IMG/VR virus record: IMGVR_UViG_3300048625_000156
Span: 30,808 to 94,807 of that record
Origin: a virus
Strand: one strand, 5' to 3'
Length of the DNA stretch: 64,000 nt
Shown in pieces: positions 4,041-64,000 of the stretch (the stretch's first letter is position 1; every line of letters starts with the position of its first letter). The notes beneath the pieces are model-generated. The model was given only the letters and a program-made list of their open reading frames with translations, did no database searches and was not told where the DNA came from. Position numbers and translations under genes: made by a program.

Positions 4041-4073
4041 TTGTATCCTTAATTGTTGTACTTCTATTATACA

Positions 4074-4361
4074 CTATTCAACGCCGTTAATCAATTGTTC
4101 TAGTACCGACATCTCAATGACTGCTAATCTTGTTTTAATTCCACTTTCACCAATAACCACCACGATTGCAGGATCATTGTTATTACGAATAGCATCAGTT
4201 GTAGCTTTAGCCCAAACCTCTTTATTAAGGGTAAAGGACTTTCCAACTTCTTTAAAATCAACAGTGAAGTTTTCCCAAGTTGCGTCACCCTTATGGGTTC
4301 CTCTACCAGAGTTCTTGTGTTGCTTGGCTCCAATTCGTCTACTCTCGCTCTTCTCGCTCAT
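4074..4361 (-). CDS. Hjc-like PD-(D/E)XK resolvase/nuclease
   Basis: NSGRG..KGDA....VDFKE motif. Confidence 0.65.
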   Translation of the reverse strand: MSEKSESRRIGAKQHKNSGRGTHKGDATWENFTVDFKEVGKSFTLNKEVWAKATTDAIRNNNDPAIVVVIGESGIKTRLAVIEMSVLEQLINGVE

Positions 4362-4524
4362 AAGACTCCTTCTTCTTCTTAGTATTTAAATCGACAACGC
4401 TAACGTGACGATCTGGGCACATCCATGTAAGTCTCTTCTCGCCAGGGTAAGAACGGATGGTTTTGACATCCGCCTTACACTCGTGGCAAGTAAAGTCCCC
4501 ATGATAAATATTATACTTCGCCAT
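4339..4524 (-). CDS. Small zinc-ribbon protein
   Basis: CHEC...CPDRH; coupled to recA. Confidence 0.65.
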   Translation of the reverse strand: MAKYNIYHGDFTCHECKADVKTIRSYPGEKRLTWMCPDRHVSVVDLNTKKKKESYEREERE

Positions 4525-5524
4525 TTACCTTAGCCTCAATAGCTTCCTGAAGATCTAGGTCTTCTCTTACACGATTGACAAATGCATCTCTACCCTGGAC
4601 CTTAGAACCATCAGGAAGGATGTACCAGGCTCCTGTACGCTCTACAATGCCCATCATCTCTGCAGTGTCAACCAAGTCTCCAATGCTGTCAATGCCCACC
4701 ATAGGACCTCTGAAGTAGAAGTCATACTCTCCACTCTGGAAGCCAGGAGAGGTCTTTGAGAACTGAACTTCCCAACGAACCTTACGTCCTACTTTCTCTT
4801 CAATGAGCTTATCGCCCACCGCAATCTTGCCTTTGATAGCCTGATTGTCTGACTCAGATGAGAAAAGTTTAATAACAGTTGAGCTATAGAACTTAGTCGC
4901 TTGACCACCCGAAGGCTGCTGACTTGTATACATAGCACTAATATTATTACGAGATTGACTAATGAGTACAAGCATCGTAGGCTTGACTTTATTATTGGCA
5001 TAGTTGAGCATCTTCCATGCGTTACTAAAGTCTCTAGACTCTGCTCCAATCTGCTTGGTGTTTTCAAGTTCTTTGAGTTCATCTGTACCCTTTTCAAAAT
5101 AGATTGCTGGCAGTAGTGATGTGATTGAGTCAATGGCGATCAGGTCTACCCCTGCATTCATTAGGGCTGTACCAACGTCTACCATCTCGTTGATTGTACG
5201 AGCCTGAGATACGATTAGCTGGTCTGTATTTACTCCAAGAGCCTTAGCCCAGTCTTCAGAATAAGACATCTCAGCATCGATCCATGCACATAGCTTCCCC
5301 TCTTCCTGGGCTTTAGCGACCATCTGAAGGCATAGAGATGACTTAGCTGATGACTTACTGCCCCAGATTAGGATTTGGCGACCATAAGGAAGACCACCCA
5401 GCAATGCACGGTTCATGCCATGACTAGGAGTCTTCTGGAATGTGGTTGTGAATCCCACTCCGTTAGATAGACGCTTACGAATTTTTGGATCTAGCAAAGC
5501 TAGAGCTTCTTCCATAGTTGTCAT
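4511..5524 (-). CDS. recA: RecA/UvsX-like recombinase
   Basis: GGLPYGR, GSKSSAKS P-loop, WIDAE, IAIDSI, GGQATKFYS, GAWY. Confidence 0.92.
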   Translation of the reverse strand: MTTMEEALALLDPKIRKRLSNGVGFTTTFQKTPSHGMNRALLGGLPYGRQILIWGSKSSAKSSLCLQMVAKAQEEGKLCAWIDAEMSYSEDWAKALGVNTDQLIVSQARTINEMVDVGTALMNAGVDLIAIDSITSLLPAIYFEKGTDELKELENTKQIGAESRDFSNAWKMLNYANNKVKPTMLVLISQSRNNISAMYTSQQPSGGQATKFYSSTVIKLFSSESDNQAIKGKIAVGDKLIEEKVGRKVRWEVQFSKTSPGFQSGEYDFYFRGPMVGIDSIGDLVDTAEMMGIVERTGAWYILPDGSKVQGRDAFVNRVREDLDLQEAIEAKVNGEV

Positions 5525-5748
5525 TATTCCACCAGCCCATTAATCTTTGCAGGGTTGAAACCTGACCACCAGTCGTCTCCTGCGTTCACCACAGGCATTG
5601 CCTTAAAGCCCTTGTTGACTAGCATCTCAAATGCCTCTAGGTCTACGGTAACATCTACTGTGCTGTACGGCACGTTGATCTTATCTAGGCTTCTTTTGGT
5701 TGCATCACACTGTACGCATGATGGCTTTGTATATACGATTACATCCAT
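5524..5748 (-). CDS. nrdH: NrdH-like glutaredoxin
   Basis: YTKPSCVQC...PVV...WSGFNP. Confidence 0.92.
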   Translation of the reverse strand: MDVIVYTKPSCVQCDATKRSLDKINVPYSTVDVTVDLEAFEMLVNKGFKAMPVVNAGDDWWSGFNPAKINGLVE

Positions 5749-6095
5749 TAGAACTTTACCCCATGCTTCTGTGCTCGTAGCTTGTTTACACTGGTCTTGT
5801 TTTCAAATGCGTAGTCAAGGGATACATGCGTATATCCATGCTCTACTAGACCTGCATACAGATCGAAGGTGCGGATAAGGATGTCTGCCATTTCATCTGC
5901 TACCGCTTCTGGTCCGTGAGACTTACGAATAGCCTCCATAACCTCCGTAGCCTCTGATACAATCATCATCAACTGCTTGGTCATAAAGATATCTGTTTGT
6001 TCCTGTGTGGCATCCTGGATTACATCCCAGAACCCTTTTTCTACTGCTAGTTCATGCAACTCAGTTGCAATATCGTCAAATGTTAAATTAGACAT
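5748..6095 (-). CDS. MazG-like nucleotide pyrophosphohydrolase
   Basis: SEATEVMEAIRK...DEMADILIR. Confidence 0.8.
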   Translation of the reverse strand: MSNLTFDDIATELHELAVEKGFWDVIQDATQEQTDIFMTKQLMMIVSEATEVMEAIRKSHGPEAVADEMADILIRTFDLYAGLVEHGYTHVSLDYAFENKTSVNKLRAQKHGVKF

Positions 6096-9000
6096 TGTTT
6101 ACATCCTCCATAATTGTTGTTCCATCTTTAGTTTTACCCAAAGAGAATTTGTATACGTTACCCTCATCGATCTTCATGTATGCCTTGGCATACGCTGTAG
6201 GGAATACTGTAACGCTGTGTAGCTCTCGGCTGGCATCTGCCAGAACTAGAGAAGCCATCTTCTTTCCAGCCTTGGTTACTCGTGACTTGAATGAGACTAC
6301 AAACAGTTCATCCTCTTTATACGGTAACTGTCGGAAACCTAGAATCTTTGTTAGACCATTCTGTGCTGTTTTGAGTTCATCGACAGGGATAGCCTCTGTG
6401 ACACGGTTATCGCTAGCCAGGATAAGATAAGTCTTTCCTGCTTCAACCTTAGACTGTTCTTCGTCAAAGATGCCAACACTGCCAGTCTTGTCTAGAATCT
6501 CTACACGAGACCAGCCCTTGCCACGCTTAATAGTTTTAACCATTCCCATAACAAGGTACGCACCCTTTTCCTCATACTCTTCAATGTCATTAATAAACGC
6601 ATAGTAGTGCTGTGGAATGGATACGTTGAACTCTGGTAGGTTCAAGTACTCGTATAGGTTCTCTTTAATCTCGTCATCATTGCGAGGATTATCAGGGAAC
6701 GTTGCTGCTCCGATGAGTCGTAGTGCTGACAATGCACGAGAGTTAACTCCGTTACCCTTGCCAAATGTGAACTCTTCCAGTTCCTTGAATGATGCAAAGG
6801 GACGTGCTGCAATGTATTTCTCAGCAATGTTATCACTAATAAACTTAATAGCAGTTAGTCCGAATCGAATACCCTTGCCCTCAATCTTGAAGTCAGCATC
6901 AGAGTCGTTGATATGTGGAAGCTTTACAGGAATGCCCATACGCTTTGCCTCAATCAGGTACTCTGTACGAGCATCCTTGTCGCTCTCGTTCTTGAGCAGA
7001 GCAAACATGAACTCTAGTGGGTGGTGATACTTCAACCATGCTGTCCAATATGATAGAGTTGAGTATGCGACAGCGTGAGACTTGTTGAACGAGTACCCTG
7101 CGTGAGCCTCAAAGTCATGCCACAGCTCTTCAGCCTGTTCTGCACGGATGTGCTTAGAAGCACCACTGACGAATCGTTCCTTGAACACGTCGAACTCACG
7201 AGCGTCTTTCTTCTTACCAATGATCTTACGAACCTTGTCAGCCTCTGCCATCGTCATACCGCCAAGTTCTGTACAGGCAAGCATAACCTGCTCTTGGTAC
7301 AGAACACAGCCGTAGGTGTCCTGTGTAAAGGACTTCATCAGCTGGTGGTGGTAAGACACGTTCTGCTTACCGTGCTTACGAGCAATGTAGTCCTTACCGA
7401 TGGTGTTCATCGCACCTGGACGGACAAGAGCGTTAGATGCAGCAAGCTCATTGAAGTTCTTGACACCCATCTTGACTAGCAGGTTGGTGTAAGGTGTGGC
7501 TTCACACTGGAAGACACCCTTGGTGTATCCCTCAGAAAGCATCTTGTAGACGTTGGCATCCTCCATGTTGATGTCATGCAGGTCAATGTCTGTTCCAGAA
7601 CGTTCTTCAATAATCTTGAGAGTGTCCTGAATAACAGATAGGGTCTTCAGACCCAGAGCATCAATCTTAATAAGACCAATACGCTCTGCTTCACCCATGT
7701 CCACAGCAACCACAGGAATGCGTTCCTTGGTTCCAGGTGCTACACGAGTCTCCATTGGAGCAAACTTGAAGATAGGCTCCTTGGCAGTTACAACACCAGC
7801 AGCGTGGATACCAGTACCACGGATACGTCCACGAAGCTTCTCACCGTAGACCTCTACCTCTGGGTACTTCTCACGGAACTCTGCAGTCTGCTTAGAGTTG
7901 CAGTAGTCGTCCCAGTCGTCCACAAGCTTAAGTACCTTGTTAACGTCAGGCAGTGGGATGTTTAGTACACGAGCAATGTCTCGCACCATACCCTTACCCT
8001 TGAATTCCAAGAACGTAGCAATGGAAGCAACGTGACGGTACTGGCGAACCAAATAGTCCTTTACTTCTTCTCGGCGTGAGTCCTGGATGTCTGTATCGAT
8101 ATCTGGGAAGTCGTTACGCTCTGGGTTGATGAATCGGAAGAACAGAAGACCGTGGACAATCGGATCGATGTCTGTAATCTCTAGTGCGTAGCAGAGCAGT
8201 GAACCTGCAGCAGAACCACGACCAGGACCAACCATAATGTCTTCTTTCTTAGCCCATGCAATCATAGAACGCACAACTAGGAAGTAAGGACCAAAGTTCT
8301 TATCCTTAATAATCTTTAGTTCCACATCAAGACGGTCAAGGTATTCCTGGTTCTTGTCCAGACCCTTAGCTTTGAGACCAGCCATAGCAAGTTCTTTTAG
8401 TTCCTTGTCTGGGTTCTGGTACTGTACAGGAAGCAGGTCAGCGTGGTCCTGAATGTTGTAGTCTTCAATCTTTGCTACGATGTCAAGGGTTGCCTGATAC
8501 ATATCTTCACGGTCAATTCCCTGTGCTTTCATAGCGTTACGCATCTCTTCGTCCGACAGCAAGTGAATGTCAAACTTGTTGAATGACATCTGACGGTCTG
8601 CACCGTATAGGTAGTCTAGACGTTCCATTAGTGTGTCGTACTTGGTTGACTCCTGATAGGTTACATCCTTCTCAGTCTTGTTAGCATAAGAGTTGAGGAT
8701 AAGCTTTAGTTCCTGAATCTCTTTCTGAGAGGTGTCTGCGTGGTGGCAGTCTGGAGTTACTACTGGAGTTACCCCGAATTCATCAGCAAGATCAAGAAGC
8801 ATCTTGTTAATCTCTGCTGGGTTGTGAGGCATGACCTCAATGTAGTAGTCGTCTCCAAAGGTCTTCTTTGCCCACTGGATGTGCTCCTTGGCTACTGCCA
8901 GGTTGTCTGCTTCGATAGCCTTGCATAGGAATCCTGACAAGCAACCAGAGGTTACAATGAGACCCTCTTTGTACTGCTCTAGAACTTCCCAGTCCATGCG

Positions 9001-11372: not shown

Positions 11373-12593
11373 CTATTTTTCTTCAAAGTCCTTGTACTTG
11401 TACCAGCCCTTGTCGAAGTCTACCTGGACCAGGAACTCGCCCATGAATCCGTTACGGTTCTTGCGGAACACGCACTCAAGGATGTCAGAGTTAGTTGCAC
11501 GACCCAGGGCAAGTAGCCAGTCAGCATCGTAGGCAATCTGACGTGACCATGAGGTCTGTCCCAATGTAGGAACAGTATCTAGCTTGGTAACGTCATCTGG
11601 TGTTGCAGACGAGATGGCTACAATAGGGATCTCTTCGCTAATAGCCATAAGCTTTAGTTCACGAGAAAGGTTCTTCATGCGTACCGTTTCGTTATCTGAC
11701 TTCTGGTTAGGAGACATGAGCTGCAAGTAGTCCACAATTACGAGGTCTGGCTTGTACTGATCAATCTTACCACGGATAACAGCAGGAGTTACTTCTCCAC
11801 CGTTGTCGTTTGAAATGATATGGAACTCTGGCTTACCCTCAAGTTCCTTTTTGTGCCAACGCTTAAGGTCTTCAATGTCTACCTGACCAGAAGCAAGCTT
11901 ACGGTGTGACCACAATCCCTCACCCATGGTAGCAAACACACGGTTGCGAACCTCATGCTCAGACATTTCAAGTGAGATGATTAGTGGCGACTTTCCGTTC
12001 TTCCATGCCTGGACTGCTGTGTAGATTGCGAACCACGACTTACCGATACCTGGGTATGCTAGGAGAACGCCTAGCTGACCTGGAGTAATGCCAGCAGGAA
12101 GATAGTTATCAAATCCTGGGAGACCGAGCTTGATACCAATAGAGCCAAGTTCATTCTGACGAGCAAGGTTTTCAAAGTATGCAACAGCAGAATCAATGTC
12201 AGTGGCATCAATGTCACGAATAGTGGCTGTGCTCTTCTTTAGTTCTGAAGTCTTGGTGATAAGGTCCTCTAGGGCTTTTGTCCCCTGACCAGCCTGTACT
12301 TCGGCAGCAGTAGATCGAAGTACATCCTTGAGACTATCTGTAAGGAATTCTGCCTGTAACTCTTCAAGGTGGTATTTGGTAGCACCGATGCCGTCGATAG
12401 GTGCGAAGTCTCGGAACTTGTCTACCACCAAAGATACAGGTGGAACAGTGCCATTAGTCTCAGAATAATTACGAATGAATGTCCAGATATCATTGTGGGT
12501 TCGCAGGATATTGTCAACGTTTGCTTGTAGCAAGACGTGAACCTGCTTATCCTGTAGTACTGCTGAAATCAGCTTTGACTCTGTGTTACTCAT
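11373..12593 (-). CDS. dnaB: DnaB-like replicative helicase
   Basis: AYPGIGKS, SLEM, IVDYLQLM, KNRNG. Confidence 0.93.
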   Translation of the reverse strand: MSNTESKLISAVLQDKQVHVLLQANVDNILRTHNDIWTFIRNYSETNGTVPPVSLVVDKFRDFAPIDGIGATKYHLEELQAEFLTDSLKDVLRSTAAEVQAGQGTKALEDLITKTSELKKSTATIRDIDATDIDSAVAYFENLARQNELGSIGIKLGLPGFDNYLPAGITPGQLGVLLAYPGIGKSWFAIYTAVQAWKNGKSPLIISLEMSEHEVRNRVFATMGEGLWSHRKLASGQVDIEDLKRWHKKELEGKPEFHIISNDNGGEVTPAVIRGKIDQYKPDLVIVDYLQLMSPNQKSDNETVRMKNLSRELKLMAISEEIPIVAISSATPDDVTKLDTVPTLGQTSWSRQIAYDADWLLALGRATNSDILECVFRKNRNGFMGEFLVQVDFDKGWYKYKDFEEK

Positions 12594-41927: not shown

Positions 41928-42563
41928 ATGTTTAATAAACAAAAAATTGCTGCTGTAAGTGCAACGGTCATTTTTATGGCTTTTGGATTTACAAACTGCT
42001 CCAGCATTCCTGCTGAAGCGGATCAAAAACTAAATAGCGTAATCCTAGCAAATCCAGAAGAGCCAACTCTTATGGATCTTTTGCTTTTTGAGAAAGAGCC
42101 TATGGGTGTCATTGCAGAGGCTGCTGCTAAAGCTGAACTTGAGGCTGAGAAGCAGAGGGTCAAGCAAGAAAAGCTTGACGCAAACACTGCAGAAATGACC
42201 AGGGCAATATCAAAACTAAAAAAGTATGTAGGATCTGAATATGGATATGGAGCGAAACCAGGATACTGGGATTGCTCTGGTCTTGTTCGTTGGTTCTATG
42301 AACAACAGGGAGTGGATCTATACCACTCAGCTTCCGCCCAGTCAAAGGCTGGCAAAAAAGTGAAGCATCCAAAAATTGGAGACATTGTAGCATTCCACTA
42401 TGGAAGCTCATACTGGTCATTCCATGTTGGAATCTACGTCGGTGATGGAAAAGTTCTACACGCATACAATCCGTATGCAGATACTGTAATCAGCAAGGTG
42501 TCAGACGTAGCAAGTGAAAATGGTGCTTGGGCATCGTATACACGAATAGTAGAAACAAACTAA
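41928..42563 (+). CDS. Secreted NlpC/P60 (C40) peptidoglycan endopeptidase
   Basis: Signal peptide, coiled coil, WDCSGLV, GDIVAF, HVGIYVG, VLHA; AAGGAGG SD. Confidence 0.92.
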   Translation: MFNKQKIAAVSATVIFMAFGFTNCSSIPAEADQKLNSVILANPEEPTLMDLLLFEKEPMGVIAEAAAKAELEAEKQRVKQEKLDANTAEMTRAISKLKKYVGSEYGYGAKPGYWDCSGLVRWFYEQQGVDLYHSASAQSKAGKKVKHPKIGDIVAFHYGSSYWSFHVGIYVGDGKVLHAYNPYADTVISKVSDVASENGAWASYTRIVETN

Positions 42564-55087: not shown

Positions 55088-55296
55088 CAAAAATCTGAAT
55101 ATTTTATAAAGATGAATGATACACGCTATGAAAACAAAACTCAAGATCGAATAGTGAGCACACACCAGGGGCATAGTATCTAGGGACACTACACACCCCC
55201 CTAATGTTATCATTTTGTTACCAAACTAACGGCGTGTCGATTTGATAAATGTCTGTGCCTGTGCTTATAATAGAGGTATAAAGAAAGGAAAAATAA

Positions 55297-55470
55297 ATGT
55301 TCGAATTCAACACAGTAATCATCACCAAGCGAGGTTCTCGTGAGGCAGGTGTATCGTTCTCTGTTCACACATTCAAGGCTACTACCGAGGCAGAGGTAAA
55401 GGCTATTGTTAGCCACCCCTCAATAGCAGGGTGGAAGTATGGATACAGCATTGGCTACGCTAAGATGTAG
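55297..55470 (+). CDS. Microprotein, 57 aa
   Basis: Own promoter, AAAGGA SD; MFEFNTVIITKRG... Confidence 0.75.
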   Translation: MFEFNTVIITKRGSREAGVSFSVHTFKATTEAEVKAIVSHPSIAGWKYGYSIGYAKM

Positions 55471-55518
55471 TTAGATGTCTGCCCCTACTGATACAATCAA
55501 ACTAACAAAAGGAAAATA

Positions 55519-55641
55519 ATGACTACTGCTGAAATGAAACTACGCTATAACGAACTTATGCGAATTGCTAAGTCTGGTGACTATATGTCTATGGCTGAGT
55601 TTGAAGAGTTACTTGCCCTTAGTAAAAAGTTGAAGAAGTGA
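55519..55641 (+). CDS. Microprotein, 40 aa (paralogue of 56202-56324)
   Basis: MTTAEMKLRYNELMRIAKSGDYMSMAEFEELLALSKKLKK. Confidence 0.75.
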   Translation: MTTAEMKLRYNELMRIAKSGDYMSMAEFEELLALSKKLKK

Positions 55642-55775
55642 TTTGACTTCCCCCAGGAAATCTGGTCGGCAAAAATAACGTTTTGGTAACAAACAGTAAG
55701 AAACGCACTAAATGTCCCTAAAATGTCGTAGGGTCATGTTAGACTGTTAGCAACAACAAAGGATAGGAAATAGAA

Positions 55776-55859
55776 ATGAACGAGAAAACCCTAAAGGCTA
55801 TGATGGCTCAGATTGTTCGTGAGAACGCTAAGAAGATTGAAGAAGAAAAGAAAAAGTAA
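55776..55859 (+). CDS. Microprotein, 27 aa
   Basis: MNEKTLKAMMAQIVRENAKKIEEEKKK; own promoter and SD. Confidence 0.6.
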   Translation: MNEKTLKAMMAQIVRENAKKIEEEKKK

Positions 55860-55930
55860 CGGCGTGTCGATACCGTTAAATGTCAGACCCTCGTGCTAAA
55901 ATAAACTAACAAACAAACAAAGGACACTAA

Positions 55931-56131
55931 ATGAAAATCTCAAAGACTGCTCGCCAGAACTACATTCTTCTTGCCCTCGCTGGTATCTTCTTCTTGCTCG
56001 CTAAGGGTGGCGTTGATGACATTGCCAAGAATGGCGTTGAGGGCTTCGGTATCTTCTTCGTAATGATTGGTGGCTTGGCTATGGTTTGCTTCCTCATTGC
56101 CCTAATCGTTCGTATCTGGGACGCTGAGTAA
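55931..56131 (+). CDS. Two-TM membrane microprotein
   Basis: Own promoter, AAGGA SD, two hydrophobic helices. Confidence 0.8.
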   Translation: MKISKTARQNYILLALAGIFFLLAKGGVDDIAKNGVEGFGIFFVMIGGLAMVCFLIALIVRIWDAE

Positions 56132-56201
56132 ATGTCAGTGGTACTTGGTACACTTATCCTATTAGTACTCTTCATGTTGATAAACCAGTAAAGGAAAAAG
56201 A

Positions 56202-56324
56202 ATGTCAGTAGAACAGAAACTTAGAATGAAAGAACTTATGTGGATTGCTCGTGAGGGTGACTACATGAGCCAAGCAGAGTTTGATGAACTCTCTATGCTA
56301 ATCAAGATGAATGACTATAAGTAG
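56202..56324 (+). CDS. Microprotein, 40 aa (paralogue of 55519-55641)
   Basis: MSVEQKLRMKELMWIAREGDYMSQAEFDELSMLIKMNDYK. Confidence 0.75.
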   Translation: MSVEQKLRMKELMWIAREGDYMSQAEFDELSMLIKMNDYK

Positions 56325-56514
56325 TCTAATCACTTTTCTTGGGCGTGTCGCTTGACATTCCCTTGAAAAAGTGCCGACCAAAATTTTTGATCTTTGTCAA
56401 GCTTATTTTGGTAACAATTTCGTTATAATTATTTTCCCAAAACACCCCAAAATGTCCATAAAATGTCGTAGGTGCGTGTTAGTATATATACATAACAAAG
56501 AAATGAGAAATGAA

Positions 56515-56724
56515 ATGAACAACCTTCCAAAACTAATCGAAGCAAAAATTGACGCTTGGTCTTCTGTCTTCTCTGATGACGCTTCGTGTGTCAAGCGTGA
56601 TAATGACTACTACAACTCTCTAATCGCTAGTCAGTCAGAATACACTGATGAAGAAGTTTCTGCCTTTGCCAGCCAACTTTGGAATGGTGAAAAGACTAGG
56701 GCAGAACTTAGAATGTCTGCCTAA
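56515..56724 (+). CDS. Hypothetical early protein
   Basis: Start moved to MNNLPK, downstream of promoter 56464. Confidence 0.7.
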   Translation: MNNLPKLIEAKIDAWSSVFSDDASCVKRDNDYYNSLIASQSEYTDEEVSAFASQLWNGEKTRAELRMSA

Positions 56725-56778
56725 TCAATGTCAGTGGCTACTGATAAACTTATAACAACAAAAGAAATGAGAAATAAA

Positions 56779-56922
56779 ATGGAAAAACTAGTTTGTGTAT
56801 TTTGCGAAAACATCTATGAGGCAGGAACATTCGTCTGCCCTGAGTGTAACGAATACAAAGGAATGATGACTATCACTGACGCTTCTAAGGAGTATGACTT
56901 CTTAGAGTATCTAACCGAGTAA
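56779..56922 (+). CDS. Zinc-ribbon microprotein
   Basis: MEKLVCVFC...CPEC. Confidence 0.75.
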   Translation: MEKLVCVFCENIYEAGTFVCPECNEYKGMMTITDASKEYDFLEYLTE

Positions 56923-57094
56923 TCGGTGTGTCGGCTTGACAGCTGCCCCGAAATCTGGTCGGCAAATTTTTTGGCTTTTGTCAAGCTTTTTAGATAACAA
57001 TTTCGTTATAAAAACTTTTCAGTTTTACGGCGTGTCGGTTATAAAATGTCGGTGGGTGGGTGTATACTGATAGTATCAAAAGAAATGAGAAATA

Positions 57095-57253
57095 ATGTAT
57101 CCAGATAAAGACCTAACCCCTTGTGAAAAGTGTGGCTCGCTTGGCAAAGTTGTAGTAGACATTTGGAGCGTTCCGTTTTTTGCTCACAAAGTCCCTAGCA
57201 CTCGTATCGCAGGATACTTCACTTTTGTTAGCGAATGCGTTACCAAATCGTAA
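57095..57253 (+). CDS. Microprotein, 52 aa, CxxC
   Basis: MYPDKDLTPCEKCGSLG...; own promoter. Confidence 0.6.
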   Translation: MYPDKDLTPCEKCGSLGKVVVDIWSVPFFAHKVPSTRIAGYFTFVSECVTKS

Positions 57254-57336
57254 TAAAAAACTTTTCACGCTACGGCGTGTCGCAGGGTTAAATGTCAGAC
57301 CCCCCCTGTATAATAGAGGTATAACAACAAAACAGA

Positions 57337-57407
57337 GATACTGAATGAGCCTAGCAGGTGTGAGCCTCGCAAGAGCAAATAAAACCCCTAGCAAATAAGT
57401 CAGTATC
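57337..57407 (+). ncRNA. Rod-like leader RNA with two nested UGAGC/CAAAUAA internal loops
   Basis: GATACTGA/TCAGTATC outer stem; CTAG/CTAG; CTC-GCAA-GAG apical GNRA hairpin. Confidence 0.55.
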
Positions 57408-57433
57408 AACCCTAATAAAGAAAAGAGAAATAA

Positions 57434-57664
57434 ATGGAAATCGGAACCAAAATCAAGACTCACGACAACGGCTACTTTGGCAAGATTGTGTCGCTTGACC
57501 CTATCCGCTTGGGCGTAGTTGCTCAAATCAAGAACAACGTCTTTGGCAAGTCATACATTGCCCTTGCTGCTGAACTTGACGAAACTAGCGACAGCCCAAA
57601 GGGTTTCACTACTATCGTTGCTGAAAATGTTGAGGCACTTCAGGCTCGCTACGCAGTAGCCTAA
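57434..57664 (+). CDS. Hypothetical early protein (beta-rich)
   Basis: ORF downstream of promoter 57293. Confidence 0.8.
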   Translation: MEIGTKIKTHDNGYFGKIVSLDPIRLGVVAQIKNNVFGKSYIALAAELDETSDSPKGFTTIVAENVEALQARYAVA

Positions 57665-57682
57665 TGAGGATGAGGGGGGTAG

Positions 57683-57713
57683 TTATCCACAGCTACCCCC
57701 CAAGTTATCCACA
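57683..57713 (+). promoter_or_regulatory. Tandem perfect DnaA boxes
   Basis: TTATCCACA at 57683 and 57705. Confidence 0.7.
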
Positions 57714-57728
57714 GGGAGCCGACCAGGA

Positions 57729-57744
57729 TCGAACAAACGTTCGA
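57729..57744. promoter_or_regulatory. Actinobacterial LexA (SOS) box
   Basis: TCGAAC-AAAC-GTTCGA, a perfect match to TCGAAC-N4-GTTCGA. Confidence 0.75.
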
Positions 57745-57846
57745 ATGTAACAGTTTGGTAACATCGTTAAGAAACACCCCATAATCTCCCTAAAATGTCC
57801 TACCCCCCTGCTACAATAGAACTATCAACAAAGAAAGGGCAACTAA

Positions 57847-57978
57847 ATGCCAAAGTCACGATACACACTATTTGAATACACGATGAACGGTCAGCAGGTT
57901 GTTTCTGCTATCCACGTCTATGACCTTGGGTCATTCCTGCGTGAACACCCAGAGGCTAAGGTCAAGGTGACTAAGTGA
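57847..57978 (+). CDS. Microprotein, 43 aa
   Basis: MPKSRYTLFEYTMNGQQVV...; own promoter and SD. Confidence 0.7.
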   Translation: MPKSRYTLFEYTMNGQQVVSAIHVYDLGSFLREHPEAKVKVTK

Positions 57979-58103
57979 GAACTATTGAAATCGTTACCCC
58001 AGAGGGTAAAAGTCAAATCCTGGAATACACTGACGGCAACCTGAAATGGGCTAAGAAACTATTTGCTAACGGCTTTCTTCAGTCTTGGGAAATCTTAGAA
58101 TAG
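57975..58103 (+). CDS. Microprotein, 42 aa (GTG start, coupled)
   Basis: GTGA overlap; MRTIEIVTPEGKSQILEY... Confidence 0.65.
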   Translation: MRTIEIVTPEGKSQILEYTDGNLKWAKKLFANGFLQSWEILE

Positions 58104-58133
58104 TTATCCACAGGATGGCGAAAGTTATCCACA
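58104..58133 (+). promoter_or_regulatory. Tandem perfect DnaA boxes
   Basis: TTATCCACA at 58104 and 58125; reversed copies also at 54245 and 58896. Confidence 0.7.
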
Positions 58134-58272
58134 GGTGGTCGGCGGTTTTCGATCTGGATCAGGTTACGAGAGCATTAAAAAATCTCCCAGAAATTCCCAG
58201 AAAGTTACGGCGTGTCTCCCTATAATGTCGGTGGTTACCTGTATAATAGAACTATCAAACAAAGGACAGACA

Positions 58273-58461
58273 ATGAACGAAATGGAAATCAAACTCTACG
58301 ACCTAATGGCACAGGTTGAGGCTAACAAGGGTGGCGATAACGAACAGGCAATGGAAGACATTGGCAACATTCTCACCCTGCTAGAAGTTTTCCACTGGGA
58401 AGACTACAAGCGAATTGTAATCGCTAAATTCAATGTCCCTGCTGACCACTTCGAAGACTAA
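58273..58461 (+). CDS. Hypothetical early protein
   Basis: Start moved to MNEMEIK after AAAGGA SD. Confidence 0.75.
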   Translation: MNEMEIKLYDLMAQVEANKGGDNEQAMEDIGNILTLLEVFHWEDYKRIVIAKFNVPADHFED

Positions 58462-58510
58462 AATGTCGGTGGCTCAGGGTATAATAGAAACATCAACGAA
58501 AGGTAAACTA

Positions 58511-58675
58511 ATGGAATACGGAAAACTGGCAGAACTCGCAAAGATTGTTTTTGGCTATGAAACTATCGAACAGGCAGAAGTTGCTGTTGGCAAACTGCTT
58601 TACTCAGGGTCTAGCGACCAGCAAATCACTCGTCTTGCTGACTTGCTTATCGAAACCATCAAGGAGAATAACTAA
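58511..58675 (+). CDS. Hypothetical early protein
   Basis: Start moved to MEYGKL after AAAGG SD. Confidence 0.75.
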   Translation: MEYGKLAELAKIVFGYETIEQAEVAVGKLLYSGSSDQQITRLADLLIETIKENN

Positions 58676-58869
58676 TGATGACCCGAAAAGACTATGTTGA
58701 AACTGCTCGCATTCTAGCAGGTTTTAGAGAAGACTTGCTATCTATTGGCGATAAGGGTGAGCATATTTTCACTTGTCTAATCGCTGAGTTTGCTGAAATG
58801 TTTGAGAACGACAATGAGCGTTTTCAGGGAGACCGATTTGACGACGCTTGCTGGGAGGGTGGGGAGTAA
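58675..58869 (+). CDS. Hypothetical phage protein (MTRKDY...NERF...RFDDAC type)
   Basis: TAATG coupling, AAGGAG SD. Confidence 0.8.
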   Translation: MMTRKDYVETARILAGFREDLLSIGDKGEHIFTCLIAEFAEMFENDNERFQGDRFDDACWEGGE

Positions 58870-58969
58870 TCCCCTGCCCCCTGGGGTCGGCAGCCTGTGG
58901 ATAACTATTTATGAAGATCCATTTAAGATCCCCAGATTAAATGTCGGTGGCTTGATGTATAATAAGACT

Positions 58970-59140
58970 ATGAAGAAAAGAACTAAGCCAATAAACAATG
59001 TAAACGAAGCAACTCGCAAGGCTCACTCTGCCGAGTTATTTAAGAGTTTGCTACTCACTAAGCACACCGTTGTTGTTCCCGAACACCGCAAGGGAACAAG
59101 GCAGTCTAACATTCGTAAGGCTATCAACGAATCGCTATAA
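58970..59140 (+). CDS. Basic microprotein, leaderless
   Basis: ATG 6 nt after TATAAT; MKKRTKPINN...HRKGTRQSNIRKAINESL. Confidence 0.7.
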   Translation: MKKRTKPINNVNEATRKAHSAELFKSLLLTKHTVVVPEHRKGTRQSNIRKAINESL

Positions 59141-59189
59141 TGTCTGACCCCAATGCTATAATGGTATTACCCAGAAAGAAAGGAACACT

Positions 59190-59285
59190 ATGTTCGAAAA
59201 TGTAATCAACGAACAGGCTATTGCTGACCTTACCCCTGAAGAGGCAGCACAGATAATGGACATTCTAGAGAAAGCAGGATACTAA
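59190..59285 (+). CDS. Microprotein, 31 aa
   Basis: MFENVINEQAIADLTPEEAAQIMDILEKAGY; AAAGGA SD. Confidence 0.65.
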   Translation: MFENVINEQAIADLTPEEAAQIMDILEKAGY

Positions 59286-59503
59286 TGACAGGCTACGTTA
59301 CACGTCAGACTAAGGTTGCTGAGGTTACTCGCTGGAGCGAGGACTACTCAAGTGACATCGGAACAGTATGGTCTGCCGAAAACTTTTTCGGTTTCTACAA
59401 AACCAAGTTGAACGGTAAGACTAAATACTTCAAGGGTGAGATGGCTGAGATGGACATCGAACGCATGTTTCATGATGCTGGAGATTGGAATTGCAGGATT
59501 TGA
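59285..59503 (+). CDS. Hypothetical early protein
   Basis: TAATG coupling. Confidence 0.75.
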   Translation: MTGYVTRQTKVAEVTRWSEDYSSDIGTVWSAENFFGFYKTKLNGKTKYFKGEMAEMDIERMFHDAGDWNCRI

Positions 59504-59661
59504 TGGATGACAGATTCGAACGCCACTTCAATCACGATATTGTTATTGCTAAGTATACTGGTCTGGATGATAAACCAGTAAATTACTCAGTCGAATGTGA
59601 AGACTGCCACGAAGTCATCATTGACGATGAAGCCTTCTTTCAACTAACTACCCCATTCTAA
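59503..59661 (+). CDS. Zinc-binding microprotein, 52 aa
   Basis: MDDRFERHFNHDIVIAKY...VECEDCHEVIID; TGATG coupling. Confidence 0.7.
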   Translation: MDDRFERHFNHDIVIAKYTGLDDKPVNYSVECEDCHEVIIDDEAFFQLTTPF

Positions 59662-59671
59662 GGAACAAACC

Positions 59672-59794
59672 ATGGACGAACAAGCAGCAGAAATTATTGA
59701 AAACCTCAATGAGTACTACGCTAACCCTCAAGACTATTCACTTCAAGACTTGGAGGACATCTTCCAAGACCGTGACCCATTCGAATTCCTTTAG
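59672..59794 (+). CDS. Acidic microprotein, 40 aa
   Basis: MDEQAAEIIENLNEYYANPQDYSLQDLEDIFQDRDPFEFL; AAGGA SD. Confidence 0.65.
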   Translation: MDEQAAEIIENLNEYYANPQDYSLQDLEDIFQDRDPFEFL

Positions 59795-59912
59795 GGGGAT
59801 TCGGTGGGGAGCCGCCGACCAGATCGGCAGCTTTCAATTACGACACGCTTACGAAATCCCTTAAATGTCAGTGGTTGGATGTATAATAGAGTTATCAAAG
59901 AAAGTTGGACTA

Positions 59913-60632
59913 ATGACCCTGATTCGCTCTAAAGACCGTAAAGTTGCTAACCAAGTAAACAAGGCTGGCACTCAAGCAAGTATGGCTAACACTTTTGGAC
60001 TGCCTAGTGGCAAGGCGTTTAGTTGCCCTGGTGCTACTAGCGTATGCGAAACTATTTGCTATGCTGGCAAACTTGAAAAGGTGTTCAAGGGTGTTCGTAA
60101 TGTTTTGGTTTCAAACTATGAGCAACTACTCAATGCTGACTTTACTGGCAAGACTATGCTACTGGCAGAGATGATTCAGGATTTTGTTGCTGAATGCGAA
60201 AAGCGTAATGCCGAAAAGTTATTCCGTATCCACTGGGATGGCGACTTCTTCAATGAGGAATACACTAGGGCTTGGGCAGTAGTTATTCGTATGTTCCCCG
60301 ATGTTCAATTCTGGGCATACACTCGTTCAGACTTTGCTGTTCCAATGCTAATCAACATTCCTAACCTTGCTCTCTACTTCTCTGCTGATTCTGCTAACAA
60401 AACTCTTGCTTGGGAATTGAAGCGTAAGTATGGTGTGAAACTTGCTTATCTTGCTAAAGACTTTGCTACTGGCAAGTCTGACTTCAATGAGCAACAGGAT
60501 AAGTCTGCTGTACCCTGCCCTGAAAACAATCGCAAGTTGGCTATGATTAGCGAAAAGGGTAGTGCTTGTGTTACTTGCTCGCAGTGTGTGTTTGCTCGCA
60601 ATGACATTCTGTTTAGTGCTAGTAAAAAGTAG
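59913..60632 (+). CDS. GP88-like Cys-rich (Fe-S / radical-SAM-like) protein
   Basis: FGLPSG...CPGATSVCETICYA...FRIHWDGDF...FWAYTR...CPE...CVTCSQC; start moved to MTLIRS. Confidence 0.7.
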   Translation: MTLIRSKDRKVANQVNKAGTQASMANTFGLPSGKAFSCPGATSVCETICYAGKLEKVFKGVRNVLVSNYEQLLNADFTGKTMLLAEMIQDFVAECEKRNAEKLFRIHWDGDFFNEEYTRAWAVVIRMFPDVQFWAYTRSDFAVPMLINIPNLALYFSADSANKTLAWELKRKYGVKLAYLAKDFATGKSDFNEQQDKSAVPCPENNRKLAMISEKGSACVTCSQCVFARNDILFSASKK

Positions 60633-60820
60633 ATAGGCTGGCTACCCCGAAAGGGGAGCTGCCGACCACAGATCGATCCAAAAGTCAAATGTTACGATTG
60701 TGTTACGAAACCCCCTAATCACTATTAAATGTCGGTGGTAGCCTGTATAATGGAAACATACAGCAAGAGAGACACAGCAAGAAACAGAAAATAAAAAACT
60801 AAAAAAGTTTGAGAATGTGC

Positions 60821-60849
60821 TTGACTTTTCCCTCTCAACCCTGTATAAT
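60821..60849 (+). promoter_or_regulatory. Canonical SigA promoter
   Basis: TTGACT-17-TATAAT, in tandem after the TGTCGG-type promoter at 60730. Confidence 0.8.
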
Positions 60850-60921
60850 AGAAGTATCAGCAAAAATGTTGGTATAAATAACAAGAAGCAAAGTCCTAGA
60901 AATAGGCAGAAAGGTTCGATT

Positions 60922-61077
60922 ATGTCGAACATCACTATCCCATCTGTTGGCTCGCAGTTCACTACTCAGGCAAGCAAGGTATCTGGAACTGTTCAGGAAG
61001 TTGTAATGAACAAGTCTGGTTCTGCTCGTGTTCGTCTTGATGTAAATGGACAGCCTCGCTGGACAACCATCAAGTAA
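60922..61077 (+). CDS. Small SH3-like beta protein, 51 aa
   Basis: Start moved to MSNITIP after AAAGG SD. Confidence 0.75.
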   Translation: MSNITIPSVGSQFTTQASKVSGTVQEVVMNKSGSARVRLDVNGQPRWTTIK

Positions 61078-61091
61078 TCCACTAGGTGGTA

Positions 61092-61118
61092 ATCCTGAGC
61101 AAGATGAAAAACTGCTCA
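61092..61118 (+). ncRNA. Mini H-type pseudoknot, copy 1
   Basis: ATC-C-TGAGCA-A-GAT-GAAAAAC-TGCTCA. Confidence 0.55.
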
Positions 61119-61191
61119 CCACACCCCCTATAATAAATGTCTCACCCCCCTGCTATAATAGTAGGACAACCCCAAAAGAAAGAAGAACAAA

Positions 61192-61644
61192 ATGGCTCGT
61201 GCCGTATCCGTAAAAATCCCAACCGCTAAGGTCATTGAGTTGATTGAGCAGAAGATTGCCCAGATTGACCAAGATGTTGCCACCTACCCTGCTCGCAAGG
61301 CTAAGTATCAGGCAGACTACAAGGTATACACCGAAAAGGTTGTTGCCACTCTTGCTAAGTTGCTGAAACAAGATGGTTCTGCTCTTCTTGCCGAAGAGAA
61401 CACCGATAAGGGTATTCGTGTTAGCACCAACTACCGCAACGCAGTAGAAATCACCATTGGCAAGGAACTGCTGGACTTGGAAAAGCCAAAAGAGCCACAA
61501 GACCCAGAGCCAAAGGGCTACTACTCACACAACGCATACAGCACCAAGCGTGAAGAGTTGGAAAAGACCCTCCGTCTGCTTCGTATGACCGAACAGGAAA
61601 CTATCACCTCCTCAACCTACAACTCGGTTCTGGAACTGCTGTAA
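61192..61644 (+). CDS. Hypothetical coiled-coil early protein
   Basis: Own promoter; 150 aa. Confidence 0.8.
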   Translation: MARAVSVKIPTAKVIELIEQKIAQIDQDVATYPARKAKYQADYKVYTEKVVATLAKLLKQDGSALLAEENTDKGIRVSTNYRNAVEITIGKELLDLEKPKEPQDPEPKGYYSHNAYSTKREELEKTLRLLRMTEQETITSSTYNSVLELL

Positions 61645-61649
61645 AACCA

Positions 61650-61830
61650 TAGGCTTACGCCTAAACACCTAAGCAAGTGTCTAAAAGGCTTCCCCCATTG
61701 GGTAGAATGGTAATAGTTTGTCTGTTTGATAAAAGGATAAATAGACTTTGGCAGTAGCAAGTAAAAGGTGTTGAGGTAATACTGCTGAGTATAGACACAC
61801 CACACCTGAGCAAGTGTAGTAAAAGGCTCA
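61650..61830 (+). ncRNA. Structured non-coding tract containing pseudoknot copies 2 and 3
   Basis: Pseudoknots at 61665-61691 and 61802-61830; hairpins TAGGC/GCCTA, GTCTGTTT/AAATAGAC, ATACT/AGTAT. Confidence 0.55.
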
Positions 61831-61832
61831 CT

Positions 61833-61868
61833 AATCCCCTTGTGTAATAGCAGGGGGATTTTTCTTTA
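61833..61868 (+). terminator. Intrinsic terminator
   Basis: AATCCCCT...GGGGGATT followed by TTTCTTT. Confidence 0.7.
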
Positions 61869-61983
61869 CCCGAAAATCGGGTCGGCAGCTCTCAAGATCC
61901 GCTTTAAGAATGTGCCAGGAAATCCCTATAATGTCAGTGGTAGGCTGTATAATGGAACTACAACCCAAAGAAAAGGAAAACTA

Positions 61984-62196
61984 ATGTATACATTCCACAG
62001 CCGAAAGGCTTACATCTCGGCAGATGGTTCTTACTCTGCTAATGAGGATACTATCACTTTTGATACTGATGCCCTCACAAATGAGCAATGGGAGATTGTA
62101 GATGACCTTCCAGATTCTATGAAGATGGAATACGCTATCGCTATCCTTGATGGTGATGATGACTTTGTAAACGAAATCGAAAGCGAGTATAAGTAA
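61984..62196 (+). CDS. Acidic early protein
   Basis: Start moved to MYTFHS after AAGGA SD. Confidence 0.75.
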   Translation: MYTFHSRKAYISADGSYSANEDTITFDTDALTNEQWEIVDDLPDSMKMEYAIAILDGDDDFVNEIESEYK

Positions 62197-62513
62197 TGGG
62201 AGCACGAACAGTATTTGAGGTAAAAGACCGTAGTGGAAGCATTTTCCTTTATTCACATTGGGGAGGGGACACTAAGATTGAAGACGCTATTGACGCTCTC
62301 AAAAAGGCAGAGCCACGATGGCAGGATACTACCTATGGTATGCGTATCTTCATTAGCCAGATTGTTGGTGAAGCATGGAAAGATGAAACTGGCTATGGCA
62401 TTTCTGCTGGACATACCTTTGAGGAACAGTATGACCCAATGGTGATTGACTTTGAAACCAATACCGTTACTTATCTTGATGAGGACTTATCGTTCAGAGA
62501 GTTCATCAGTTAG
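62196..62513 (+). CDS. Hypothetical phage protein (MGAR...LYSHWGG type)
   Basis: TAATG coupling. Confidence 0.8.
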   Translation: MGARTVFEVKDRSGSIFLYSHWGGDTKIEDAIDALKKAEPRWQDTTYGMRIFISQIVGEAWKDETGYGISAGHTFEEQYDPMVIDFETNTVTYLDEDLSFREFIS

Positions 62514-62560
62514 ATGTCGTAGGGTGGCTGTATAATAGGACTAACAACGAAAGGAAAGCA

Positions 62561-62707
62561 ATGAGAGCATTTGAGATACTTACAGGCGAACTCGTTTTGG
62601 TTTATGCCGAAACCGAAGATGAAGCAATGGAGAAACTTGGTGAGGGTGAGTATGAGGAAATCGAAACCCTGTCAGAGGTTCAGAGAGAGTATGAGGTGGC
62701 TGAATGA
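62561..62707 (+). CDS. Acidic microprotein, 48 aa
   Basis: MRAFEILTGELVLVYAETEDEAMEKL...; own promoter and SD. Confidence 0.7.
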   Translation: MRAFEILTGELVLVYAETEDEAMEKLGEGEYEEIETLSEVQREYEVAE

Positions 62708-62889
62708 AAACCATTGACGAACTAATCGCATTCTGTAAAGAGAACATTGCTGAGTTAGATAGTTATGTGCTTGATAACGATAGTGATAGCGAATACTTTT
62801 CAGGCGTTCAATCTGCCTATGCTCAGGTTATCCTTTTCCTTACTGGTGAAGAGATAGAGGTTCCCCAAATCCCCTACCCAGAAATGTAG
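62704..62889 (+). CDS. Acidic microprotein
   Basis: ATGA coupling. Confidence 0.75.
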   Translation: MKTIDELIAFCKENIAELDSYVLDNDSDSEYFSGVQSAYAQVILFLTGEEIEVPQIPYPEM

Positions 62890-63016
62890 GGGTGCTGGGC
62901 TGCCGACCCAATTGTAACGATCAGGTTACGAAGCTTACGAAACGGTTCCCCAATCCCTATAATGTCAGTGGTCCACTGTATAATAGAGGTATCAACAAAA
63001 AGAAAAGGAAACCCCT

Positions 63017-63382
63017 ATGAGCCGTGAACGTGGAACCCTTGTCTACAAGATGGACGAGAACGCAACCCTAGCCCTTATCCGTAACAAACTTGGTAAGCCT
63101 GACGCTGACGTAAAGCCAGACATTATGGTTGTTGCTATTGGTAAGAATGGTCCTGCTACTATCTGCCGTGAGGGTGTAGGTTGGTGGGCTGACGCTAATG
63201 GTGGTATCCCTATCAACTTCTATTCTGGTAACTATGGCTCTGGTGGCTTTGTAGATGTTACCGCCGAAGAGTTGTCTGATGTAACTACTGACGAAACTAT
63301 GGACCTTGCTGACTTCATCAACGAGTTTGGCGACCGCCTAGAAACTAACTTCTACCTTTGGCAACAATACATCAAAGGTTAG
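63017..63382 (+). CDS. Hypothetical early protein
   Basis: Own promoter, AAGGA SD. Confidence 0.8.
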   Translation: MSRERGTLVYKMDENATLALIRNKLGKPDADVKPDIMVVAIGKNGPATICREGVGWWADANGGIPINFYSGNYGSGGFVDVTAEELSDVTTDETMDLADFINEFGDRLETNFYLWQQYIKG

Positions 63383-63437
63383 ATGTCGTACCCCCCTGTT
63401 ATAATAGATAGTATCAACCCTAAGAGAAAGAAAGAAA

Positions 63438-63908
63438 ATGGCATTTGACGAAAACGGAAATGTTGTACCTGACCCTATTAGTGCTTCTAGTGTTCTTGGT
63501 GAAGCAGTAAGTGAACACCCTGTACTTACCCCACTGAAAAATCGTATCGCTGAGTTAGAGCGTGAGGTTGAGATTGTCAAGGGTAACTCTGATAACTATC
63601 GCAACCGTTGGAATGAACTCTGTAGCCAACGCTACACGCTTGAGAATGCTCTGCGTACCTTTGTCGAAGATGAAGAGATTGAACTAAGCATTGCTACCCA
63701 GATTGCTGAAATCTTTGACATCACCCTGACCAAGACCATTGACGTTGAACTGACTTTCAAGGTTACCGTTTCGGTTGAGGTTCCTCTCGGTGAAGAGATG
63801 ACTGCTGATGACGTTGCTGACAACGTTAGCATTTCTGTAGACTACTACGGCACAGGGGAGTTGCTTGAAAGCGACAGCGACCTTGATGACTGGAGTGAAC
63901 GTTCATAG
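63438..63908 (+). CDS. Acidic coiled-coil early protein
   Basis: Own promoter; 156 aa. Confidence 0.8.
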   Translation: MAFDENGNVVPDPISASSVLGEAVSEHPVLTPLKNRIAELEREVEIVKGNSDNYRNRWNELCSQRYTLENALRTFVEDEEIELSIATQIAEIFDITLTKTIDVELTFKVTVSVEVPLGEEMTADDVADNVSISVDYYGTGELLESDSDLDDWSERS

Positions 63909-63940
63909 GGGGCTATGAAAACATGCAGTGATATGCATGG

Positions 63941-63968
63941 ACATCCTGAGCATGATGTAAAAAGGCTC
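63941..63968 (+). ncRNA. Mini H-type pseudoknot, copy 4
   Basis: ACATC-C-TGAGC-AT-GATGT-AAAAAG-GCTC. Confidence 0.55.
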
Positions 63969-64000
63969 CTTCTTCATGCCTGGAATTTGCCGACCCCCCC

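Follow-up and report, generated by a model that had tools for sequence, protein, structure and literature searches.

The closest described relatives of the element reported here are the stoperators of cluster A mycobacteriophages, the promoter early stem-loop (PeSL) cassettes of T4-type phages together with the 'boundary sequences' of lambdoid phages, and the first-step-transfer repeat of phage T5. Stoperators, which serve repressors of the L5 gp71 type, are numerous asymmetric intergenic sites of 13-14 bp whose somewhat degenerate consensus varies between lineages and co-evolves with its reader; they are spread genome-wide, oriented with transcription, and found in temperate phages with a known repressor. 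PeSL cassettes consist of small early open reading frames (ORFs) with a repeated promoter and stem-loop, and are shuffled by exchange at intergenic repeats that offer tens of bases of homology. T5 features an injection-stop region, site-specific nicks and a proposed restriction-like nuclease, A1; in a proposed and unproven model, such a nuclease spares the phage and cuts a site in each terminal repeat beside paired DnaA boxes 3 nt apart (bioRxiv 10.1101/866236). Here we describe a seven-base word, GCCGACC, that punctuates an array of small early genes in the uncultured virus of IMG/VR record IMGVR_UViG_3300048625_000156. The stretch analyzed (the window) comprises 64,000 nt, positions 30,808 to 94,807, of this 94,807-bp contig. 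The system shares features with all three precedents but falls short of each on defining points.

The evidence supports the conclusion that the word behaves like a DNA site with a specific reader: its copies are exact, none lies outside the array, and related phages have another exact word in its place. As to what reads it, we tentatively favor a restriction- or nicking-type enzyme, either an orphan enzyme of the phage or one of the host, that would make programmed nicks or breaks at words on the boundaries between transcription units, while conceding that this proposal is more apt to be wrong than right.

GCCGACC or its complement occurs in 11 exact copies in the window, six on the plus strand and five on the minus strand, between positions 55664 and 63995, and the first 55.6 kb of the window contain none. 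A preliminary description of this DNA had listed these 11 cores, in both orientations and always after a stop codon, at intervals of 0.4-1.2 kb. Our recount agrees: all window copies are intergenic, lie 3' of a stop codon, and follow one another at distances of 419-1219 nt. Dinucleotide-preserving shuffles of the window gave a mean of 2.0 copies and a maximum of 8, and none of 100 shuffles reached 11. The contig ends overlap by 127 nt, leaving a unique circle of ~94,680 bp, and the array, first delimited as 55641-63995, has its copies where they were placed but runs on past the window edge to genome positions 1-5800. Two further copies lie there, at genome 1360 (plus) and 5201 (minus). A genome-wide count yields 13 unique copies (seven plus, six minus), all within a 13.4-kb arc whose genes are all on the plus strand, and zero in the other 81 kb.

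Within this arc, 13 perfect copies stand against 0.5-0.6 expected, whereas variants with one mismatch show no enrichment (12 of 79 in the arc, which makes up 16.6% of the genome). The sequences that flank the 13 copies are mostly unrelated to one another and are not conserved. Because the word is exact and its one-mismatch variants are not enriched, we conclude that all seven bases are held exactly, under selection. Chance, or functionless remnants of a recent spacer duplication, is effectively refuted as an explanation. Some spacers are indeed paralogous, for instance the two with dyads and the two with DnaA-box modules listed below, but the shuffles never reach the observed count, most flanks are unrelated while the word remains exact, and more than 15 related contigs repeat the pattern with words of their own. 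The copies in the window, and the array to which they belong, are as follows.

55664..55670, minus strand: word copy 1, intergenic; a single TTGAC-type half-site lies 15 nt to the left (55641-55648)
56373..56379, plus strand: word copy 2, at the center of a 53-bp dyad (56350-56402)
56957..56963, minus strand: word copy 3, at the center of a 53-bp dyad (56934-56986)
57718..57724, plus strand: word copy 4, to the right of a G6/C6 hairpin and of two consensus DnaA boxes (57683-57691 and 57705-57713), and to the left of a LexA-type palindrome (57729-57744)
58137..58143, minus strand: word copy 5, with two DnaA boxes to its left (58104-58112 and 58125-58133)
58885..58891, minus strand: word copy 6, with an inverted DnaA box 4 nt after it (58896-58904)
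59814..59820, plus strand: word copy 7; the promoter that serves the GP88-family gene (59865-60632) is 51 nt downstream, and a partial inverted word is 3 nt downstream
60661..60667, plus strand: word copy 8, 4 nt after a hairpin (60645-60656) that follows the GP88 stop codon; the reference spacer for comparison across lineages
61880..61886, minus strand: word copy 9, after a T-run terminator, with a second small hairpin overlapping the word
62902..62908, plus strand: word copy 10, from which homology with locus L002 (position 11940) extends rightwards
63989..63995, plus strand: word copy 11, equal to genome 94796 and duplicated as 116 by the contig overlap
55249..63410, plus strand: in-window part of the early-promoter array, with ~21 promoters ATGTC-N10-13-TAnAAT before small ORFs

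For comparison we fetched 30 related loci with the in-array GP88 gene as anchor, about 20 of which share 70-88% identity in that gene, and we compared five whole genomes (G000, G001, G002, G003 and G005, where G003 is the genome of locus L016). A megablast search of the array against cultured phages gave no match. GCCGACC is retained in L002 and L003 only, in 10-12 copies, and all 10 copies of the 55.6-kb L003 contig fall within its first 9.3 kb. At the homologous position, the remaining lineages each have another exact G/C-rich word; the spacer that follows the GP88 stop codon shows this best.

L008: word GCCCGACC, 13 copies on both strands
L014, L015, L016 and L019: word GGCGCC, often extended, with 17 sites in G003
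L009 and L010: word GCGCCCC, often as a 10-bp palindrome, 11-16 copies
L005, L006, L007 and L020: GCGC within T/A tracts, 9-22 copies
L017, L018, L012 and L013: words based on GGCC or CCGG, often as inverted pairs, 15-33 GGCC per locus
L004: word GGGTACC, 14-16 sites
L030: a word like TTGCCCAA, about 13-14 copies

Part of these words are palindromic (GGCGCC, GGTACC, TGCGCA and the bare GCGC in T/A tracts), part are asymmetric (GCCGACC, GCCCGACC and GCGCCCC), and in some lineages the word is doubled into inverted pairs. Each genome has 10-17 sites, and its word is confined to its own array (13 of 13 sites in G000, 10 of 10 in G005, 13 of 13 in G002, 17 of 17 in G003, and all sites in G001). Since close relatives hold another exact word at the same spots, something appears to read the word very precisely. 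Furthermore, word class and GP88 phylogeny do not run in parallel: in this gene the window shares 88% identity with L004, which has a different word, and 85% with L002, which has the same one. Such decoupling from the phylogeny of flanking genes fits a specificity that can be swapped horizontally.

In the arc, ~30 promoters that fit ATGTC-N10-13-TAnAAT all point the same way, each ahead of small ORFs, and in many of them the -10 is extended. A word-bearing spacer reads, from left to right: stop codon, hairpin of G/C runs, word, GATC or AGCT, repeated words of the TTACGA type, and promoter, with paired DnaA boxes or a LexA-type palindrome sometimes joining the GATC or AGCT. The word directly follows the terminator-like hairpin, in either orientation, and stands 50-100 nt ahead of the next promoter. 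It does not occur once per spacer, as had been stated, but in 13 of ~30 promoter-bearing spacers, which are those that start a unit after a hairpin and mostly have a promoter of the TGTC[G/A]GTGG class. The distance from hairpin to word is 0-10 nt, rarely up to 20, in all five genomes, and a segment made up of the word and the 45 nt on its left folds with -15 to -18 kcal/mol. The right side of the word folds with -6 to -8 kcal/mol, and random array windows give ~-8 kcal/mol (standard deviation 4).

Position at the foot of a hairpin and distribution at operon boundaries only are what a roadblock or insulator would need, and these features bring in the main rival to a cutting enzyme. A phage-encoded or virion-delivered protein, bound to the word after a weak terminator hairpin that lacks a U-tract, would stop read-through, insulate units or shut off early transcription. 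Protein and sites would co-evolve, like the repressors of cluster A phages and their stoperators. The stability of the left flank in five genomes, the indifference to orientation and the replacement of words between lineages all suit such a protein, as do the four of 13 copies at the -10 position of a -35-like hexamer, and purged sequences (see below) would make addresses without off-targets in the phage genome. Nonetheless, we consider a roadblock possible but unlikely. Exact words of 4-8 bp with variable flanks, some palindromic and some asymmetric, are unlike typical operators, and the protein would be titrated by a high-G+C host, in which thousands of copies of a G/C-rich site of 7 bp would be present. 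Moreover, no DNA-binding gene was found among the scanned ORFs, no array protein covaries with word class, and the small array proteins are mostly acidic. A roadblock also leaves unexplained the clusters of GATC and AGCT that accompany the word and the likeness of the words to restriction sites.

The preliminary description had offered a binding site for a phage protein, possibly one delivered by the virion, or an RNA-polymerase decoy or roadblock similar to stoperators, and had placed the core where the -10 box of a TTGACA element would be. Both of its 53-bp dyads (56350-56402 and 56934-56986, with oppositely oriented cores) and both lone half-sites, at 55641 and 60683 and 15 nt from their cores, are present exactly as reported, and the general idea of a specifically read DNA site is supported. 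The decoy is not supported as a general account, because a TTGAC half-site or -35-like hexamer stands at the right distance in only four of the 13 copies; for those four the -10 placement is correct, and for the element at large it is not. Membership in the stoperator family fails on length, genome-wide spread and orientation bias alike. Despite the shared actinobacteriophage setting, the words are 4-8 bp long, exact, limited to the early array, free in orientation and placed at terminator feet, with no repressor identifiable in the ORF scans.

Three other readings of the word in its spacer were rejected. It is not one arm of the hairpin stem, since its bases are mostly paired in just 3-7 of the 10-17 sites per genome. 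It is not an RNA-level element such as a processing site or part of a terminator, since the word flips while the hairpin keeps its side. Use of the word as a promoter by a sigma factor or RNA polymerase of the phage is likewise rejected, since the large ORFs encode neither and word orientation is random.

The composition of these genomes places the words in an unusual background. In G000 there are no CCGG, GGCC or CGCG and a single GCGC, against ~206 expected for each, and all five genomes are almost without these four G/C-only palindromic tetramers. CCCG is depleted 20-fold, no copy exists of 22 six-base palindromes (among them the SacI, SphI, XhoI, PvuI, NarI, EagI and NaeI sites), and the SalI site occurs once. 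Exceptions to the purge are the arrays of lineages whose word includes such a tetramer; in the G003 array, 19 of 20 GCGC are at words. The words of one lineage are avoided by all lineages outside arrays. For several palindromic tetramers that contain A/T, the frequency inside arrays is lower again, by a factor of 2 to 10 relative to the remaining genome; for GATC and AGCT the factor is 2.4 to 4.5. Those that are present keep close to the word: 13 of 18 GATC and 12 of 14 AGCT lie within 40 nt of it, a zone that makes up 7% of the arc, and most lineages are similar. This composition is one of extreme restriction-site avoidance throughout the clade, and the loss of nearly every copy of four tetranucleotides illustrates the force with which restriction can shape a phage genome. 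GCCGAC is scarce outside the array (2 versus 8-12 expected), but it is equally scarce in a lineage that does not use the word, and this avoidance was rejected as specific evidence. The ratio of observed to expected CpG is 0.5-0.6.

T5-like phages resist restriction only at sites outside their terminal repeats (PMC10644984), and a stricter purge of first-entering DNA is therefore to be expected. This is one point of likeness to the T5 repeat, along with paired DnaA boxes 3 nt apart and the architecture of the Streptomyces BE phages, which are siphoviruses with a long terminal repeat of small early genes. The differences are that no sequence homology to T5 exists, that 13-17 sites occur here, one per operon boundary, versus one region in T5, that the promoters are of the actinobacterial PafBC type, and that nicks, two-step injection and a terminal repeat are hypothetical in the present phages.

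Exact words of 4-8 bp, drawn from otherwise purged sequence and swapped independently of phylogeny, are closer to restriction or nicking specificities than to operators. The mixture of palindromic, asymmetric and doubled words likewise resembles a spectrum of restriction-modification specificities, which also vary among close relatives and are avoided elsewhere, and is unlike dyad operators. Restriction sites are normally eliminated from phage genomes, however, whereas here they would be kept at 10-17 regular positions with no cognate enzyme identified. In the mechanism that we propose, the words would sit solely in the stretch of which each genome molecule has two copies, between self-contained units of promoter, gene and terminator, so nicks or cuts made there by the enzyme would harm no gene and could be repaired, or used for priming, from the other repeat copy by the RecA-like and Cas4-like proteins of the phage. 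Breaks of this kind might seed recombination-dependent replication and concatemer formation, and as a by-product the words would become points of cassette exchange between co-infecting relatives. In a host chromosome of high G+C content, an enzyme of this G/C-rich specificity would find thousands of targets.

Several observations weigh against an enzyme of this type. The terminal-repeat status of the array, on which the proposal leans, is itself deduced by homology; 13-17 cuts in both repeat copies could be harmful; and in T5-like phages it is precisely the restriction sites inside terminal repeats that are vulnerable (PMC10644984). The tight placement of the word at the hairpin foot is better explained by a roadblock, and no model that invokes a reader easily accounts for a concerted switch of every site to a new word. 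In addition, Pfam, PHROG and PADLOC scans of ~70 ORFs revealed no methyltransferase, restriction-type nuclease, sigma factor or repressor, and methyltransferases of the D12, N4/N6 and C5 types and HNH, GIY-YIG and metallophosphatase domains were all sought in six frames with negative results. No array protein family tracks the word across 19 loci. Restriction enzymes often escape profile searches. A helix-turn-helix or repressor family was likewise not detected among ~63 ORFs scanned, although many small orphan ORFs remain.

Individual candidates for the reader were also set aside. The best covariation candidates are small acidic proteins and are unconvincing, and an 84-amino-acid protein, which matches a homing-endonuclease-associated repeat at a sub-threshold score (E 0.02), is acidic and occurs in four loci only. 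A lone plus-strand gene at window 41928-42563, which seemed to covary with the word, encodes an NlpC/P60 lysin. A lineage-specific gene of 346 amino acids (L052 2519-3559, genome 11519-12559, minus strand) has no homologue in G001-G003 and matches 'GT4 in conflict systems'; it encodes a GT4 glycosyltransferase, which could be a lineage-specific function that glycosylates DNA or protein.

Alignment of the window with L002, the same-word relative in which cassette order is permuted, reveals where modules have been exchanged. At window 57718, the left module (hairpin, two DnaA boxes and word) is identical to that at L002 position 8677 up to the last base of the word, and to the right of the word the homology jumps to the right module of L002 position 7756. 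The site at window 58137 has the reciprocal combination of modules relative to L002. At window 60661, the left side of L002 position 10789 is joined to the right side of L002 position 12956, and at window 62902 homology with L002 position 11940 starts at the word. The orientation of the word moves with the left, or terminator, module. A crossover core for cassette shuffling had been among the initial suggestions, and breakpoints do fall at the core, at all four of these sites. Classical site-specific recombination between cores, in contrast, is unsupported, because the cores point both ways and yet the array genes are all on one strand in all loci. Integron attC, shufflon and invertase systems differ in just this respect, since their inverted cores give inversions. 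No recombinase family was matched by Pfam among the ~63 ORFs scanned, and no six-frame search was aimed at recombinases.

These exchange points raise the possibility that nothing reads the words, and that they are linkers, microhomology or G/C clamps at cassette boundaries, kept because they promote or survive shuffling recombination. PeSL cassettes and the lambdoid 'boundary sequences' would be parallels, and the array resembles them in being a dense set of ~30 repeated promoters, with hairpins at unit ends and small orphan ORFs. The permuted order relative to L002 is also accommodated. PeSLs, however, use tens of bases of homology and have no lineage-specific exact word, whereas here exchange maps to a 7-mer rather than to homology within promoter or stem-loop repeats. 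Seven bases are too few for homologous exchange, and because the reciprocal partners at window 57718 and 58137 carry the word in opposite orientations, the word itself was not the homology used. Neutral linkers would be expected to drift, yet one-mismatch variants are not enriched, and a G/C clamp would need no single exact word per genome with an internal A. Confinement to purged sequence and the GATC and AGCT companions would also go unexplained. For these reasons, we regard the absence of any reader as improbable.

Another option is that the words are marks read by the host, either as a Chi-like signal for end protection, as a motif for methylation or phosphorothioation, or as a G/C cluster that accompanies the DnaA boxes of an origin. 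In the Chi-like variant, both orientations would be needed because the terminal repeat would be at both genome ends. That no phage reader was found is in keeping with this idea, as are the G/C richness that the words share with the presumed actinobacterial host, the roughly equal use of both orientations, and the presence in every lineage of some copies 3-5 nt from paired DnaA boxes. Strain-level variation in host defense specificities could also explain why word class is decoupled from phylogeny, and one lineage's word may resemble the phosphorothioation consensus of Streptomyces lividans. We nevertheless judge host-read marks to be a rather poor prospect. Chi and origin elements change slowly, yet phages with 85-88% identical GP88 genes carry unrelated words, and DnaA boxes are present in just 3-5 of the 13 word spacers. 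Chi-like hotspots are host-specific 5-8-mers, over-represented and strand-skewed in the host chromosome, with one active orientation; the unrelated words of such close relatives argue against membership in this class. We know of no Chi sequence for actinobacterial AdnAB or RecBCD, which also counts against this option.

DnaA pairs with a 12-nt period adjoin the word at genome 5211/5223 and in L008, L009 and L016. At the far end of the array (L001, genome 5201-5850), the word is followed by this DnaA pair, three ATTACGAAC repeats, an A/T-rich stretch and more DnaA boxes at 5821. This region, where the array converges with minus-strand genes, could be a DnaA-dependent origin. All six genome copies of ATTACGAAC are in the array.

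The cutting-enzyme proposal leans on the array being a long terminal repeat, which it probably is, judging from homology with Streptomyces BE-type phages. In BE1 phages, the homologous region is a terminal repeat of ~11 kb with 20-25 small ORFs (PMC5764925), and in a related BE-type isolate the terminal repeat measured 12,432 bp and has the GP88 gene inside. The 12.4-kb repeat of the cultured BE-type relative shows neither the tetranucleotide purge nor the word system. In our contig, genome 1-127 equals 94681-94807 exactly, which underlies its 'direct terminal repeat' flag; an overlap of this kind is typical of assembly circularization and provides no evidence for physical ends. If the phage has a long terminal repeat, the assembly has collapsed it.

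Capsid and DnaE polymerase are closest to those of Streptomyces cluster BE-type phages (45% and 57% identity, respectively), and this affinity together with a WhiB-family gene supports an actinobacterial host. The same scans that sought a reader identified genes for replication, recombination, repair, nucleotide metabolism, lysis and structure, including RecA-like, Cas4-like, DenV-like, DnaB, DnaG, DnaE, RNR, ThyX, ferritin-like and GT4 glycosyltransferase proteins. The only array genes of known family are GP88 (PF17338) and DUF932, for which we found neither a relative of solved structure nor a functional hint.

The spacing of the array promoters fits the actinobacterial type with a -26 motif for PafBC. 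At window 55249-63410 and genome 212-4850, TGTC[G/A]GTG lies 8 nt upstream of the TAnAAT -10 and no -35 is present. A second promoter class, TGTC..ACCCC, is mostly inside units. PafBC reads the -26 motif instead of a -35, and single-stranded DNA activates it (PMC11804915). This suggests a further, speculative extension of the enzyme proposal, wherein words that are nicked or cut by the phage's own system would serve two linked roles, and which we think quite improbable as a joint claim. First, nicks or breaks in the first-entering repeat would expose single-stranded DNA, the activating ligand of PafBC, and the phage would deliberately trigger this host DNA-damage activator to ignite the ~30 PafBC-type early promoters that depend on it. 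Second, repair of breaks from a co-infecting relative would copy neighboring cassettes along with the donor's word, and such a cassette drive would explain the concerted switch of the word at all boundaries independently of gene phylogeny.

The PafBC-type promoters, together with the LexA and DnaA boxes, suggest that the phage is wired into actinobacterial control of DNA damage and replication. If the words are read by an enzyme or by another exact binder, these phages offer a natural series of at least 5-8 interchangeable pairs of word and reader at defined positions, against a genome from which such sequences are otherwise purged, which would be useful for finding new sequence-specific nucleases, nickases and binders. 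They would also show a phage organizing its first-entering DNA into autonomous, exchangeable cassettes, and would bear on terminal repeats of the T5 and SPO1 type, on early-gene shut-off and on the shuffling of hypervariable 'host-takeover' regions. The literature that we searched, on BE phages, phage nicks, T5 and PafBC, yielded no account of early arrays in phages being punctuated by words specific to a lineage.

Several smaller features of the arrays deserve mention. The palindrome at window 57729-57744, right beside word copy 4, is a perfect LexA-type sequence (TCGAAC-N4-GTTCGA), and similar boxes stand beside words in L002 and L008. An 11-mer, ACGGCGTGTCG, has four genome copies, all in the array (window 55229-57282), is also present in the relatives L016 and L017, and often lies just upstream of a TTGACA hexamer located 14-17 nt from the word. 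Among the conserved small early proteins are extremely acidic ones with Asp/Glu-rich tails (L001 1511-1681 and window 61984-62196, with homologues in 10-14 related loci), a composition expected of DNA-mimic proteins that counter restriction or other defenses. Finally, the arrays of relatives hold tRNA genes (L016 ~8150-8200, L017 ~8450-8500 and L009 ~11800-11840), and T-arm and acceptor-stem sequences of tRNAs in these arrays stop a few bases before a word.

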